From Escherichia coli (GTDB lineage Bacteria; Pseudomonadota; Gammaproteobacteria; Enterobacterales; Enterobacteriaceae), in the NCBI RefSeq assembly GCF_003018235.1, contig NZ_CP027437.1: DNA of 64,000 nucleotides; one strand, given 5' to 3'. The number at the start of each line of letters is the position of its first letter. Positions within the stretch are counted from its first letter, which is position 1. The notes below the pieces were generated by a model. The model saw only the letters and a program-made list of their open reading frames with translations, made no database searches and had not been told where the DNA came from. Of the stretch, positions 12,888-30,876 are shown piece after piece. Both the position numbers and the translations under genes were made by a program.

Positions 12888-14262
12888 CAGCCACACTGTT
12901 GACGACGGACTTTATCTGTTCGTCGGTGCCTGCACGGTTTCAGCCCCCGGAAGGGCTGCGTTCGGGGCTTCACCCCGTTCCCCGGCCTCAGGGTCGCGAT
13001 GCGTTTTCTGCTGCATGACCGTTCAGAACCTCCGTTGATACTCGTCACTCATTACCGTTCGGGCCTTCGGGTGTCATGCCCTACTATGCCCTCTGCTGAC
13101 TCCTGTCCGCCGGTCAGCGCCCCTTACGGTACGCTCAGTTCTGGATACAGAACGACGGACAGGCCTCCCGGGGTAAGTTCAGCTGCCTTCACCACACACC
13201 TGTCCGATTTACCACCCCGGTTCTTGATGGTTATGGCCTTCGCAATTCTTTGCTTGCTCCGCCAACCGGGTAGGCCTCGTATCGGATTTCTGTTCGTCAG
13301 GTCATGGATTTGCTTCACGCTTCCTTCAGACCCCGCTTCACGACGACGCCCTTGCGCTTCGCTAGTCCTTCGCTACCATCAGGCTGGACAGGGGACTTTC
13401 ACCCCCGAGCTGCTGAACATGCCCGGCACACAAAGAAAGCCCCTCCGGAGAGGGGCTGGTATGCGCAATGTTCCATCATCTGCATGGTGCCGGGTGCCTC
13501 CCGGTGAGTCCGGCATCAGCATCCGAACCCGCAATATTGCCCAAATAAAGCTAAAGGATGATTGTGACCTGCTGATTTGCCCCTCCGCACAGGGGGATTC
13601 ACCATGCAGACATTTTCTTAGCAAAATCACTGCGTGCCAGGCAACTCCCAACTACATAAAATGTGGAGTTTGTGGCATTTATGCACATAACTCACAGGAA
13701 TTATCTTAAAAAAGCTGACAGGGCTTCCCCGGCAACGTAATACCATCATTCCCTGAAATGACATCCCCGTATTATCGACAGGCTCAAAAAGGAGCCAGTC
13801 ATCTGAGGATGACTGGAAAAAGGAAAGATAAAAAATTATTCATCATACAACCTTCGTTGCAAGGGAGAATCCTGCGGTGCAGCAACATACAAAAACATAA
13901 GCCAACTAACAATATGCAGGCATAGCATTTTCGGATTTTGTTATATGGCACGGCAACTGAATGCTCACCTGATATACAGTCCGGTATAAAATTGCAAAAA
14001 AAAACGCCAGTTAAGGCGGCATTTAAACAGATAACAGGATTTTTTCGTAATTTCAACAACGTCGGGGTGGCGCATCGTCAGTCCCTGTCAGGAAGTACCA
14101 GCACTCCCACCAACAATGCACCACCCCATTCAGCGTTGTAAAACACGGCACAGGAACTATCAATGTTTTCTGTTACAGTTCGGGAAAAACGATAAACACG
14201 CCACGGGCTCTTTTTGCTGTGAATTAAAAACGGTCCTGAAAGCCGGCTCATCATTTTTTACT

Positions 14263-19661: not shown

Positions 19662-20490
19662 GACGATGCCCTCCGTTGATATTCAGGAGACGGTGAATAT
19701 GAAAATTAGCCTTATCCGCCAAACGAATACGTTCAGCCTGCAAGTTAAGAAGTGTTTCTACCAGAACCTGATGCGCCTGCGGATCCGAAAGAGTTACCTT
19801 GCGCAGAGCACGTAGTGCAGTTGTTACATAACTGAGTTTATGTAAGTCTTCATCATTCAGACGAGTGAGGGCTGGGACAGTAGCCATGATGGCAGCCTCC
19901 TTGATCGGTGAAATACTTCCACCACCGGAAACGCCAATTTCGCTGGTGGTGAACTGAACGGGGTTGGCGTAACCGGTGATCAAGGAAACCGGCGCATCTT
20001 TCGATGCCCCCGCCCAGCCCACCATAACTTTGATGTGAGCAAATGCGGACGATAAAAAAGACGCTGGCGCGTCATATATCGCCTTGATCAATTCCAGGAC
20101 GCCAATCCCGGCACCCGCTTTATAAGGTGCCTGAACAGTGTAACGTCCCGGAATGGCAGAATCAATGTGCTGGTGGTCCTTCACACTCAACAAAATCACG
20201 CCTGAATTTCCACAAAGGACTAAAGCACTCATGCGGGTAGTCTTTGCGAAGATAGATAACGCGCTGTGTTTCTGGCTCCCAACGAATAACATGGACATAA
20301 AGCCCTCTTCCGTCACGAAACCAGCGGTTAAGTTCCTGCACAACTCGCCCCCCACAGTCAGGTAAAGTTCTCTGTGGTTACTTACAGCCAGGTGATTTGG
20401 TAATCTGCATTCATGCCGTAACAACAGGTGTTCAGCGACGCTGACCACCAGCTGTTGCGACAAACGGTTATTTGCCGTTAAACTGTTCAT
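19654..20490 (-). CDS. hypothetical protein (278 aa)
   Basis: long coherent ORF in early-right operon; family not recognised. Confidence 0.5.
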   Translation of the reverse strand: MNSLTANNRLSQQLVVSVAEHLLLRHECRLPNHLAVSNHRELYLTVGGELCRNLTAGFVTEEGFMSMLFVGSQKHSALSIFAKTTRMSALVLCGNSGVILLSVKDHQHIDSAIPGRYTVQAPYKAGAGIGVLELIKAIYDAPASFLSSAFAHIKVMVGWAGASKDAPVSLITGYANPVQFTTSEIGVSGGGSISPIKEAAIMATVPALTRLNDEDLHKLSYVTTALRALRKVTLSDPQAHQVLVETLLNLQAERIRLADKANFHIHRLLNINGGHRHA

Positions 20491-26488: not shown

Positions 26489-27108
26489 TGACCACATTTA
26501 CCGACAAAGAACTGATTAAAGAAATCAAAGAGCGCATAGGCAGTCTGGATGTGCGAGACAATATTGAGCGCCGTGCTTATGAAATTGCTTTGGTATCGCT
26601 GGAAGCAGAACCGGTGGCATGGCTGCATTCAGACAATGGCTTAGGTATTCCGGCAATAACACGGAGTAAAAACATTGCTGACAGTTGGTTATCAAAGGGC
26701 TGGTATGTTCAGCCGCTATATATAGCCAAGCCAGTGCCGATGGTGCCAGATGTTCGTCCGTCTTTAAATAATGGCATAGTCGGCTTTGATGAAGGCTGGA
26801 ACGCCTGCCGCGCCGCCATGCTTCATGGTGCCGAACCTGTAAGCCAGACTTACAAGTTGAACGAGCTGTCGGGCAACTCTCCGGTAACTCCGGATGGTTG
26901 GATAAGCTGTAGTGAGCGAATGCCGGACGATAAACAGTATGTTTGGTGTTGGGGTAAGTCTTACGGCTGGACTGAGTGCGATACCTTCGAAGGGTATTAC
27001 GATTGGTCGAGAAACAAATGGTGGGCAGTTACTGACGATGGGGAAGAACCGGCATCGAAAGTAACCCACTGGATGCCGCTACCGGAGCCACCGCAGGAGG
27101 TGAAGTAA
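26488..27108 (+). CDS. YfdT-like protein (Trp-rich C-terminal domain)
   Basis: 206 aa; ATGA-type coupling with neighbours. Confidence 0.5.
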   Translation: MTTFTDKELIKEIKERIGSLDVRDNIERRAYEIALVSLEAEPVAWLHSDNGLGIPAITRSKNIADSWLSKGWYVQPLYIAKPVPMVPDVRPSLNNGIVGFDEGWNACRAAMLHGAEPVSQTYKLNELSGNSPVTPDGWISCSERMPDDKQYVWCWGKSYGWTECDTFEGYYDWSRNKWWAVTDDGEEPASKVTHWMPLPEPPQEVK

Positions 27109-27302
27109 TGAACAACTTAATGACAACTAAACAAGTCGCCGACTTCTGTGGCGTTTCAGTATCGACCGTTCTTCGATGGAACAGCGTAAACAGGAGAACT
27201 GGCCAGAAATACAGGCCTGAGTTTCCAGATCCTGATATTAAATCCTGCCCAAATAAATGGGCATCACACAAGATTTACAGATTTGCGGGAGTGATTGATT
27301 AA
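27108..27302 (+). CDS. AlpA-family HTH regulator / excisionase
   Basis: 64 aa; TTKQVADFCGVSVSTVLRW HTH; next to integrase module. Confidence 0.7.
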   Translation: MNNLMTTKQVADFCGVSVSTVLRWNSVNRRTGQKYRPEFPDPDIKSCPNKWASHKIYRFAGVID

Positions 27303-27584: not shown

Positions 27585-28304
27585 TTAAATCTCTGTTTCT
27601 TTTCCTGTTCGGCTCAACCAATACTCCATTGTTTGAGTATGAATCTTTTCAGCGTATATTTTATCAATTAATTTATCTCGTTTTTCTTTAATGACTTTAC
27701 GCAGTGAATCATATAACATAAAAAAACGTTCATCGTCTTCCTCATTATTACCGTAATTTATTTGATTGAGTTCTGAAAAAATATGATAATACCTTTTTTT
27801 CTTGGTCCCCGGCAATATTAAAACCAAGCCACATTGATCATATTCGAATTCACCTTTATGGGCAGCAAAGTTATGTCTAACATTCATAATAGAATCATGT
27901 AAATCTCTGTATTTTTCTGGCACATGCTTTCTCTGCAATGTGAATCGACGCCCTTTCGCCTCTGTAAAACACTTACCGTAAGTAACAACTTTTGATATAA
28001 ATAAAGACTTTAATATTAGATTCTTTTCTAAATCAGGATAAATAAAGTGTTGTTCTCTATTAATGTTATTACAAATGTTTTTTATTATATTCTCCCAACC
28101 AATAACATTCCGAAGATCTTTATCCAGCAACTGTAAGGCCACATATTGTTCTACAAAGCGGCCTTTTAAAGGTATTCGTGGTAATATTACACCTTTCTGC
28201 TTATAAACTCTTTCTATCGTATTATCTGGATATTGGATCTTCCTTATTTCTATTCCGTCTTCTTCTGATACCCTTACTAATGGTTCATTTTTTAACTTTG
28301 ACAT
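27585..28304 (-). CDS. hypothetical protein, AT-rich moron between xis and int
   Basis: 239 aa, K/E/N-rich; AGAGGG RBS; sits in a low-GC island 27300-28590. Confidence 0.55.
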   Translation of the reverse strand: MSKLKNEPLVRVSEEDGIEIRKIQYPDNTIERVYKQKGVILPRIPLKGRFVEQYVALQLLDKDLRNVIGWENIIKNICNNINREQHFIYPDLEKNLILKSLFISKVVTYGKCFTEAKGRRFTLQRKHVPEKYRDLHDSIMNVRHNFAAHKGEFEYDQCGLVLILPGTKKKRYYHIFSELNQINYGNNEEDDERFFMLYDSLRKVIKEKRDKLIDKIYAEKIHTQTMEYWLSRTGKETEI

Positions 28305-28589: not shown

Positions 28590-29813
28590 TCAGTTTGAAT
28601 CAGAGATAGTACAATTAACAATCGATTCAACCCTCTTCCACCATGCCAGGTAAGCTTTACGCTGTTCTTCTAGATAATCGCTCTTATCATAAACTTGCCA
28701 TACCCCTGGCAGCTTATGACCAAGCATAATTTCTGCGATATGAGGCGCAGTAAGATCAGAAAAATTTGTTCGTGCTGTCCGTCTCAAGTCATGAAGAGAC
28801 CAATGAGGGAATTGATATCCTAAACGCCGCCACGCGTACTGCATTAAATTGTAAGGCAGCGACTGTAATGATGTCCTACCGACGGGTTCCCTGCTTCCTT
28901 CCTTAGTAAAAAGCATATCGGAACCGTTGTTCATAGAGATAACGTATTTTATAAGCTCTTCAACCGGTTCAATAATGGGCCGCTTTAGCGGTTTGCCTGT
29001 TATGTCCCCTGTCTTATGTCGTTCAGGTGGTACAGTCCATACCTTATTTATGAAATCAAAATCACCCACCCTAGCAGTAATTAGCTCCGAACTACGGCAA
29101 CCAAAATGCAGTAATAGTTTAATGAAGGCCCGGTATTTGGGAACCATTCTAGAGCCATCGATCGCAGCATAAAGAATTTTAATTTCATCGTGTGTCAGAA
29201 ACCGTTTCTTCTGACCTTTACGGATATCCATATCTTTACCCGTGATATCCGACAGCGGGCGAGTTTCAATAAGCTTTCTCTTATACGCCCAGACATGGGC
29301 CTGCTTTGCGTTAATTAGCAATCGGTCTGCTATTGCTGGAGTCTTAGTGCTAAGAGGCTCCAAGACTTCTAACCAATCATGCAATGTAGCTGCATCGTGA
29401 GGGATATTCCCGATTTTAGAGAACAGGTGCAGCTCAAACGAGCGGAGTATCTGTTCAGAACCCTTTTTATTTTTTACACAATATGCTTCATACCAGGCAC
29501 GGATCACAGACTCTACCGTCATGGCTTCAGTAGCTTTTCGTTTTTCAGCCTGCTTGACCAATCGTGGATTACGGTTTGACTCGAGTTCACCACGGAGACG
29601 GATAACTTCTTCTCTGGCCTCTTTTAATCCAGTTGCCGGGTAAGTTCCGATATCAAGACGCTCACCTTTCCCTGCCCATTGATAACGATATTGGAACACT
29701 ACGCGACCTTTCGGTGATACTCTGACAGACAGACCATCACGATCGGATTTAACCAAAACCTTATCACGTTCCTTTCCAACGACTGAACGCAACCACGCAT
29801 CAGACAGCGCCAT
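28590..29813 (-). CDS. tyrosine-type phage integrase (P4-like, N-terminal arm-binding domain)
   Basis: 407 aa; C-terminal catalytic region with R...H-x-x-R...Y; prophage-chromosome junction nearby. Confidence 0.9.
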   Translation of the reverse strand: MALSDAWLRSVVGKERDKVLVKSDRDGLSVRVSPKGRVVFQYRYQWAGKGERLDIGTYPATGLKEAREEVIRLRGELESNRNPRLVKQAEKRKATEAMTVESVIRAWYEAYCVKNKKGSEQILRSFELHLFSKIGNIPHDAATLHDWLEVLEPLSTKTPAIADRLLINAKQAHVWAYKRKLIETRPLSDITGKDMDIRKGQKKRFLTHDEIKILYAAIDGSRMVPKYRAFIKLLLHFGCRSSELITARVGDFDFINKVWTVPPERHKTGDITGKPLKRPIIEPVEELIKYVISMNNGSDMLFTKEGSREPVGRTSLQSLPYNLMQYAWRRLGYQFPHWSLHDLRRTARTNFSDLTAPHIAEIMLGHKLPGVWQVYDKSDYLEEQRKAYLAWWKRVESIVNCTISDSN

Positions 29814-29823
29814 TACTCACCTT

Positions 29824-29879
29824 GTACAAATCGCAAAACACCTCTGCTGCTTTGTACATTATGTACAAGCACATGTACA
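29824..29879. repeat. four TGTACA repeats immediately upstream of int (putative arm/regulatory sites)
   Basis: TGTACA at 29824, 29854, 29862, 29874. Confidence 0.3.
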
Positions 29880-30198
29880 GATTTTTGATGAAAGCAACCT
29901 GATCGATTTAAAGTTACATGAAAGAATTTTCAATTAAAGAAGCCACATAACTATATGTATTTAAATGATTTATATAGCTAGACCTCAATTAACTGAAAGG
30001 ATTTTGAAAGAGTAAAAGAGCTTTAATTTGGGATTAATTATTGGGGTGAGAAATAATGGCAAAAGTGCGGCGCTTCGCCACCTCTTGCAAATAAGGAGAC
30101 AACGTCATAATTCTTTCTTCTTGAGTAAGCGGCATCGCGCCGCGCTTGTTGAAAACGAAAAATTGCGGCTATTTTACCCATCAACGGGGGGGAGGCAA

Positions 30199-30876
30199 TC
30201 AGTGTTTACACAGGAGCTGCTCCAGTTCGTGCAACGAAGAAACGGTCCAGGTGGGCGCGATGCCTTCTGGTTGCTCGCGATTGTGCGCATTCAGCCAGCA
30301 GGTCGCAAGCCCGGCGTTGATGCCACCGAGAATATCGGACTCGGCAGTGTCGCCAACCATCAGCACGCGTGAACGGTCAGGATTGCCCGCCTGTTCCAGC
30401 GCATAATCGAAAATTTTCTTATTCGGTTTGGCAACGCCAACTTCTTCGGAAATCACCAGCAAATCGAAATAATCACGCAGGCCCGTGCGTTCCAGACGCA
30501 CTTGCTGCAAGGCGCTAAAGCCGTTGGTGATGATGCCAATTTTAGCGTTGCCACGAATGGCGTTAAGCAGAGAAACCGCGCCCGGCAGCGGCGTACAGAT
30601 TTCCGCCATCGCATTAATAAAGGCTTCGTTGAGTTTACCCGGCTCGACGTTCAGCCGTTCGGCCCAGCTCTCAAACCGCCCGTGCTGAAGCTGTAATGAA
30701 GTGATCGCGCCGTTTTGATAATCCACCCACAGTGGCTTGTTAACGGCCTGATAGTCCTGAAAATCTTCAGCGGTAAAGGTGACGCTGTAATCAAGAAACA
30801 TCCGCTGCAGGCCGGTGAATGAGTCAAAGGTAAACAGCGTTTCATCGGCATCAAAGAAAATCCAGTCCCACTTCAT
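30199..30876 (-). CDS. yjjG: pyrimidine 5'-nucleotidase YjjG (HAD family)
   Basis: 225 aa; HAD motif FFDADETL. Confidence 0.9.

Follow-up and report, generated by a model that had tools for sequence, protein, structure and literature searches.

Several prophages of Escherichia coli are known to reside in prfC, the gene for RF3, among them cdt-I (AB285204; Asakura 2007), 2H10 (NC_049950) and the Stx1a and Stx2c prophages of O165:H25 and O103 strains (LC727876; PMC10132054; PMC2323221). The prophage described here, which occupies part of a 64-kb stretch of E. coli DNA (the window), carries the same integrase-att module as these elements, with 94.9-99.3% nucleotide identity over int, the P′ arm and the core, and it shares with them the same 14-bp core. 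In these relatives the short N-terminus of RF3 is replaced by phage sequence, a replacement described for an Stx1 phage by Ogura (2007), where the transcription and translation of the chimeric prfC were called untested (PMC2323221). Smyshlyaev et al. assigned the integrase of the cdt-I phage and IntSXT to a single cluster, the members of which all insert next to prfC (PMC8138268). The integration site in prfC is, in short, already known, and the locus analyzed here is an ordinary prophage attachment site.

The same target, the 5′ end of prfC, is used by the SXT/R391 elements (IntSXT; Hochhut & Waldor 1999), whose 17-bp core consensus, ATcATcTCtCACCCtGA, covers the same prfC positions and overlaps the same codons (PMC9058013). 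SXT/R391 elements supply a substitute prfC 5′ end, their xis and int genes are convergent as in the window, and their Int is homologous to that of the window prophage, with an arm-binding domain of the DUF4102 type. TGTACA-type tandems are present on both attP arms of the SXT/R391 element R997, with the repeat unit TGTACAAA in place of the TGTACATAA of the window prophage. The two systems differ in that SXT/R391 is a conjugative element and not a phage, in which transcription of int starts at the SetCD-dependent promoter Ps003 and proceeds towards att, and in which xis is the att-proximal gene. [quoted passage not shown]

Lambda Int and P4 Int are, like the window Int, tyrosine integrases with a separate N-terminal arm-binding domain, and in both systems, as in the phage family considered here, repeated sites are present on the two arms to either side of a short core. 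The arm sites of lambda and P4 differ in sequence from TGTACA, the binding of which by the window Int is putative, and the gene arrangement differs as well: in lambda, int and xis share a transcript that heads for att, whereas in the window int is oriented away from att and is convergent with xis. Reconstitution of the invaded gene is also known from other targets, as with phage 21 and e14 in the 3′ end of icd and with the dusA-specific integrases at the 5′ end of their target. These likewise carry a diverged copy of the displaced gene end, and the host gene stays open; with phage 21 and e14 it is the 3′ end of icd that is replaced, whereas here it is the 5′ end of prfC together with its ribosome-binding site and promoter.

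Our overall reading of the locus, to which we assign a probability of about 0.7, is that the interval between int and yjjG is the attL of a prophage inserted into prfC through a 14-bp core, and that the TGTACA copies within it are arm-type Int sites.

Position of the prophage junction within prfC

The first-pass annotation of this DNA had placed the junction between prophage and chromosome in the interval 29814-30198, flanked by int (28590-29813) and yjjG (30199-30876), and had stated that yjjG is followed by prfC in K-12. The open-reading-frame list agrees with the flanking genes, and the K-12 gene order (holD, rimI, yjjG, prfC) with that statement. When the window is aligned to K-12, homology runs continuously from rsmC to yjjG and breaks off at window position 30044, inside that interval, which corresponds to nucleotide 65 of prfC. 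The features at the chromosomal side of the junction are as follows:

30199-30876, minus strand: yjjG, the chromosomal gene nearest the junction that is still intact (open-reading-frame list and annotation of matching genomes)
30171-30198, minus strand: native prfC promoter-like site, TTGCCT-16-TAAAAT, from a consensus scan; it is now directed across attL at int
30034-30108, minus strand: orphaned prfC 5′ remnant open reading frame of 24 codons, made up of 65 nt of host prfC, phage-derived Asn-Asn and a stop
30044-30057, minus strand: recombination core ATTATTTCTCACCC, 14 bp, from the attL/attB/attP comparison; prfC codons Ile18 to Pro22

The start codon of prfC and the first 65 nt of the gene (21.7 codons) are present on the minus strand at 30044-30108, and the prophage is therefore inserted within the prfC coding sequence, at codon 22, and not in the spacer between yjjG and prfC. 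Translation of 30034-30108 yields 22 residues of the RF3 N-terminus followed by Asn-Asn and a stop codon, and the equivalent reading frame in the near-identical strain 18KM2445 is annotated in RefSeq as an incomplete pseudogene. Both the native promoter-like site of prfC and its ribosome-binding site have been left in the window beside yjjG.

An insertion between yjjG and an intact prfC, with a window free of any prfC sequence, was the arrangement originally proposed. It would suit the bare gene order, in which yjjG is followed by int in the window and by prfC in K-12, but it does not accommodate the prfC segment with its start codon, the breakpoint at codon 22 or the same intragenic insertion in the literature (PMC2323221), and we consider its probability to be close to nil; intergenic insertion beside an intact prfC was already ruled out by the K-12 alignment. 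The reference alignment that the first-pass annotation had suggested as a check thus moves the junction 90 bp farther from yjjG than an intergenic site, while keeping it within 29814-30198. The accompanying claim that prfC is missing from the window holds for the bulk of the gene, since alignment to K-12 located nothing of prfC beyond nucleotide 65 anywhere in the 64 kb, and fails for its start codon and 5′ end. Two further expectations were borne out. The rest of prfC was predicted to lie beyond the far prophage end, and genomes with the same module show attR and a prfC annotated as intact some 45.6 kb away. Only one att site was predicted in the window, which follows from the 14-bp core being found once and the remainder of prfC being absent.

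By sequence comparison, the interval 29814-30198 is attL (B-O-P′), the integrase-side end of a lambdoid prophage. It combines three attributes of the lambda-type attL of a heterobivalent integrase, namely an adjacent tyrosine recombinase, an N-terminal arm-binding domain in that recombinase and a short core, common to attP and attB, at the breakpoint.

Prophage, integrase and the rebuilt prfC

On the other side of the junction, the window contains the following elements:

1-30043, no strand assigned: lambdoid prophage DNA, running off the left window edge; no K-12 homology left of 30044
28590-29813, minus strand: int, tyrosine integrase of 407 aa, belonging to the prfC-targeting 'SXT cluster' (Pfam and homology)
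27108-27302, plus strand: probable excisionase gene xis, convergent with int (weak HTH_17 and excisionase matches)

The integrase gene is full length and its product contains the Pfam domains Arm-DNA-bind_3 (PF13356, residues 3-90, E = 1.9e-16), Phage_int_M and Phage_integrase (the catalytic domain PF00589, E = 2.4e-17). At the nucleotide level the int-att module matches that of the isolated phage 2H10 with 99.2-99.3% identity (99.2% over a 1561-bp query), that of phage cdt-I with 94.9% and those of the Stx1a and Stx2c phages of O165:H25 with about 95%. Comparison with the Int of R997 gives 39% amino-acid identity overall (E = 9e-89), made up of 57% for the arm-binding domain, 23% for the middle part and 39% for the catalytic part, so that the arm-binding domain is the best-conserved part of the two proteins. 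Insertion at the Ile-Ile-Ser-His-Pro codons of prfC, together with homology to cdt-I Int and IntSXT and the presence of a DUF4102 domain, places the enzyme in the prfC-targeting SXT cluster, which belongs to the IntSXT subgroup.

The recombination core was delimited by comparing the window attL with the attB of K-12, the attP of phage 2H10 and both attL and attR of the Stx2c prophage LC727876. At the host/phage breakpoint, exact identity between attP and attB extends over the 14 bp of ATTATTTCTCACCC, which encode Ile-Ile-Ser-His-Pro and coincide with a feature of LC727876 that is annotated as a 14-bp 'duplication due to insertion'. On its far arm, the 2H10 attP carries a ribosome-binding site and the start of an open reading frame (ATG ACA AGC CTT TTG GCC GCA GAG GTA GCG AAA AGA AGA ACC TTT GCA) that runs into the core. 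In the attR of LC727876, a phage-borne mimic of the prfC 5′ end, 21 residues in length, is joined in frame to codon 22, and the lysogen consequently retains a full-length prfC reading frame. Judging from these related attP and attR sites, the phage substitutes its own sequence for the prfC promoter, ribosome-binding site and opening 21-22 codons. The replacement 5′ end was seen in the 2H10 attP, in the LC727876 attR and in 27 of 29 species matches (see below), the corresponding arm of the window prophage lying outside the window. Its attR lies outside as well, and an attR with the same core is known from relatives, that is, from LC727876 and from 698 E. coli genomes.

Of the complete E. coli genomes examined, 5426 in number, 4717 retain an attB without interruption and 699 (~13%, about one in eight) have an attL in which int is next to yjjG. 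A matching attR, accompanied by a prfC that RefSeq annotates as intact and by a dinI-like gene, was found in 698 E. coli genomes. For annotation purposes, the position of prophages with this integrase is best given as codon 22 of prfC, attL retaining an orphan of 65 nt and attR having a prfC that is chimeric but open, and neither 'intergenic' nor 'disrupting a gene' is an apt label; one survey counts prfC among disrupted genes (PMC3603311). Strains with this arrangement would make RF3 from a promoter, a ribosome-binding site and an N-terminus supplied by the phage.

The prophage genes in the window include those for a terminase, lysis proteins, a Q antiterminator and a CI-like repressor, in addition to xis, the homologue of which in phage 2H10 is annotated as excisionase, and int. 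A 239-aa open reading frame between int and xis (27585-28304, minus strand), which has a counterpart at the same place in 2H10 (gp29) and in 18KM2445, gave no match in Pfam, NCBIfam or PADLOC. The core-to-core distance is ~45.6 kb in NZ_CP126600.1 and NZ_AP045171.1, for both of which attL and attR are listed, and this length agrees with the 46.3-kb genome of phage 2H10. With ~30 kb of prophage inside the window, the attR of the window prophage should be located some 15-25 kb past the left edge. Strain 18KM2445, which provides the best attL match, was rejected as a source of attR, its prophage having a P2-like phage nested within it.

The window prophage differs from its stx- and cdt-bearing relatives in having neither stx nor cdt. 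No toxin domain was detected in the Q/tRNA-lysis slot (about 9.0-14.2 kb), which is occupied by genes of the IS21 family, the reverse transcriptase of a group II intron and intron RNA domains; in other respects the prophage is a further lambdoid mosaic that uses this integration module. The group II intron remnants span 9600-13650 on the minus strand, with Rfam matches to D5-D6 at 9609-9681 and to D1-D4 at 13062-13347 and a reverse-transcriptase open reading frame at 12012-12896. The intron is apparently split by an IS21-family element on the plus strand (10201-12002), comprising an istA-like gene (10201-11013) and istB (11220-12002). These remnants are situated between Q/tRNA-Lys/tRNA-Met and a SASA/DUF6645 esterase gene, which is the stx slot of related phages. 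Three Rfam small RNAs, STnc100, C4 antisense RNA and isrK, score above the gathering score in the window, at 13426-13637, 19942-20029 and 20054-20130, all on the minus strand.

TGTACA repeats on the attachment-site arms

The first-pass annotation had drawn attention to four TGTACA copies just upstream of int as possible arm-type or regulatory sites. All four were found, at 29823, 29853, 29862 and 29874, within the following set of features:

29814-30043, minus strand: P′ arm of attL, the phage DNA between the core and int, colinear with the 2H10 attP
29874-29879, minus strand: site A, TGTACA, first tandem unit, 6 nt ahead of site B and unchanged in 7 of 7 genera
29859-29867, minus strand: site B, TGTACATAA, second tandem unit; GTACATAA invariant in 7 of 7 genera
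29853-29858, minus strand: site C, TGTACA(AAG), lineage-specific copy, in E. coli, Salmonella and Pantoea only
29823-29831, plus strand: site D, TGTACAAAT, inverted copy; GTAC core in 7 of 7 genera, full TGTAC in 6 of 7
29889-29894, 29919-29924, 29994-29999 and 30005-30010, minus strand: four CTTTCA repeats in the same orientation, in the P′ arm spacer

The hexamer occurs 11 times in the 64-kb window, against 12 occurrences expected, and given this ordinary total it is only the clustering that is unusual: four copies fall within 57 bp (Poisson estimate, about 4e-7), in the sole place in the window where two copies are less than 40 bp apart. Sites A and B, 12 bp apart, constitute a tandem, TGTACA-N6-TGTACATAA, and site D abuts the Shine-Dalgarno sequence of int, AAGGTGAG (29816-29823). 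In the attP of phage 2H10, four further TGTACA copies are found on the other arm, including a TGTACA-N6-TGTACATAA tandem in the same orientation.

The int-side arm, from the core to the int ATG, was aligned for loci from E. coli, Salmonella, Pantoea, Xenorhabdus, Serratia, Vibrio and Pseudomonas. The Int homologues of the six genera other than E. coli are 52-84% identical to the window Int, and all loci are at the same prfC codons. Four blocks are invariant over the seven genera: the core, site A, site B (as GTACATAA) and the int ATG. The P′ arm spacer, of roughly 180 nt, is by contrast with the repeats poorly conserved between genera. On the opposite strand, site D reads TGTACAAAT or TGTACATAT in the majority of genera examined and CGTACATAA in Pseudomonas, and in two further genera it is one flanking base away from TGTACAWAW; this reading makes site D an inverted copy of an asymmetric unit, TGTACAWAW.

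A scan of metagenomes contributed 41 unique P′ arms. In the 36 of these for which the core was found upstream, site A starts 146-151 or 176-178 bp from the start of the core. Site D is placed 37-40 bp from site B in 38 of the 41 arms, and is separated from the int ATG by a variable 3-26 nt. The same set of arms bears on the proposal that the palindromic copies pair with one another, as an int-leader RNA hairpin or a DNA cruciform, and so mask the int ribosome-binding site. Sites B and C are each complementary to site D over 8-10 nt, and Pseudomonas shows a matched change of site B (CGTACA) and site D (TGTACG); among the 41 unique arms, however, eight of nine T-to-C changes at site B have no counterpart at site D, the tandem on the P arm has no inverted partner, and the interval matches no Rfam family. 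Pairing of this kind is very unlikely, and it was dropped as an explanation on the grounds of the uncompensated changes and the absent Rfam match.

For the far arm, one genome per species (100,044 species) was scanned for a pattern consisting of the tandem, 45-75 nt and the core. Matches were obtained in 29 species of Gamma- and Betaproteobacteria, scattered within genera, where we estimate a chance expectation of ~0.02. In each of these 29 species the distance from the start of the tandem to the core is 85-88 bp; the tandem is followed by an ATG that opens a full prfC in 27 of them, and in 26 there are 16-17 codons before the core. This regular spacing on the P arm could partly reflect a constraint on the length of the RF3 N-terminus. 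In R997, the TGTACAAA tandems occur on both arms, ~20 nt before the element's own prfC-mimic ATG and at ~140 nt and ~380 nt past the core, and int is not downstream of them. The TGTACA tandem is kept from E. coli to Pseudomonas, Vibrio and Moraxella, and, as the variant TGTACAAA, in an SXT/R391 element.

Of the two roles originally envisaged for the repeats, the comparative evidence favours the first. A spacing that is fixed with respect to the core, occurrence on the two arms alike, a layout that does not depend on where int lies, and conservation in step with the arm-binding domain all argue that the TGTACA copies are probably arm-type integrase sites, with a consensus of about TGTACAWAW. 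TGTACA is itself a palindrome, which is unusual for an arm-type site, and the asymmetry of the unit rests on 2-3 flanking bases.

Some of the same observations could be accounted for if the repeats were promoter or operator elements only, serving int and the phage-supplied prfC and playing no part in a recombination complex. The tandem stands shortly upstream of a start codon on both arms (that of int on one, that of the prfC mimic on the other), TGTACATAAT includes a -10-like CATAAT, and site D adjoins the int Shine-Dalgarno sequence. A purely transcriptional role is nonetheless unlikely, as promoter scans returned no sigma-70 match at the repeats of either arm, and the unit reads CATAAA in Vibrio and Pseudomonas, without the key final T; on these two counts TGTACATAAT was discarded as a -10 box. 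Moreover, the R997 tandems flank the core with no int downstream, the spacing of site D is fixed with respect to site B and variable with respect to the int ATG, and a -10-like TGnTAnAAT is common ~60 nt upstream of the P-arm tandem, which puts the tandem within the transcript.

The CTTTCA repeats of the P′ arm are relevant to a different question, that of whether TGTACA is bound by an accessory protein, either an excisionase (directionality factor) or a host nucleoid protein, instead of Int. Four CTTTCA copies are present in the spacer against 0.09 expected, none of 2000 shuffles reached four, and the repeat is partly conserved in Salmonella, Pantoea and Xenorhabdus; it was not seen in the P-arm sequence of 2H10. 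These copies may represent accessory-factor sites (for Xis or IHF), and their confinement to the P′ arm makes them better candidates for such a role than the TGTACA copies, which occur on both arms, a distribution unusual for directionality-factor sites. Palindromic hexamers would fit dimeric helix-turn-helix proteins, and the phage does carry a Xis of the helix-turn-helix type, but the TGTACA sites are common to elements with different accessory genes (a lambdoid phage and SXT/R391, with its SetCD-controlled xis) and they co-conserve with the arm-binding domain of Int. Recognition of TGTACA by an accessory protein therefore strikes us as quite improbable, and arm-type Int sites remain the preferred reading.

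A scan of IMG/VR with the integrase alignment yielded nothing but near-identical pieces of E. coli prophages, most of them cut off at int, and so provided no new attP diversity. A few attP-like or tandem-array junctions were noted in genomes (L114, L117) and metagenomes (L174, L204), showing either a P-arm tandem and a core without prfC behind it or a single core with a tandem to each side; in L114, what follows the core corresponds to the P′ arm of R997. In Pantoea agglomerans, a gene for an Int with 57% identity is preceded by TGTACATACTGGTGTACATAA and has no recognisable prfC fragment upstream, and this locus may be a secondary or different attachment site.

Proposed recombination complex and possible effects on int and prfC

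The att-site comparison shows that integration took place by exchange within the 14-bp core inside prfC. We propose that the N-terminal arm-binding domain of Int would bind TGTACAWAW units, which on the P′ arm would be the A/B tandem, the inverted site D and the lineage-specific site C, and on the P arm the tandem. By analogy with lambda Int, protein bound at the arm sites and at the core would bridge the two and build the recombination complex.

Binding at these sites might also affect transcription. P4 Int reportedly represses int by acting near its own promoter, and this serves as our model for autoregulation. Any promoter farther upstream is separated from the ribosome-binding site of int by sites A-D, and occupancy of these sites by Int might, speculatively, damp int expression; Int on the other arm might in the same speculative manner limit transcription of the phage-supplied or chimeric prfC. 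A consensus scan detected no terminator-like site between the orphaned prfC promoter-like site and int, and in attP the phage's own prfC-mimic leader takes the position of that promoter-like site, from which it would follow that int is always subject to upstream transcription across sites A-D. With the P-arm sites in the leader of the element-supplied prfC 5′ end, Int occupancy could tie RF3 expression to the state of the mobile element.

An arm code common to phages and SXT/R391 elements, based on conserved TGTACA repeats, would be a by-product of modest interest. That TGTACA(W)A tandems are the shared arm-site code of the entire prfC-targeting integrase cluster, spanning phages, islands and SXT/R391 elements in Gamma- and Betaproteobacteria, is a generalization we put forward only tentatively, as somewhat less probable than its converse. 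Searches of the searchable literature (TGTACA/attP/integrase; SXT arm-type sites) did not find this repeat code, which Hochhut & Waldor 1999, Burrus & Waldor 2003 or Asakura 2007 may contain. If the TGTACA tandems are arm sites, they offer a simple signature for both ends of prfC-targeting elements, including the SXT/R391 resistance ICEs, and a handle with which to engineer or block the integration of such elements.

A separate observation concerns the dinI-like gene that accompanies attR. In phage 2H10 (positions 4770-4815 of L004, outside the window), two LexA-box-like sites of the form CTGT-N8-ACAG are located past the P arm and before the divergent dinI-like gene, an arrangement that would set an SOS-controlled gene next to the chimeric prfC in lysogens.
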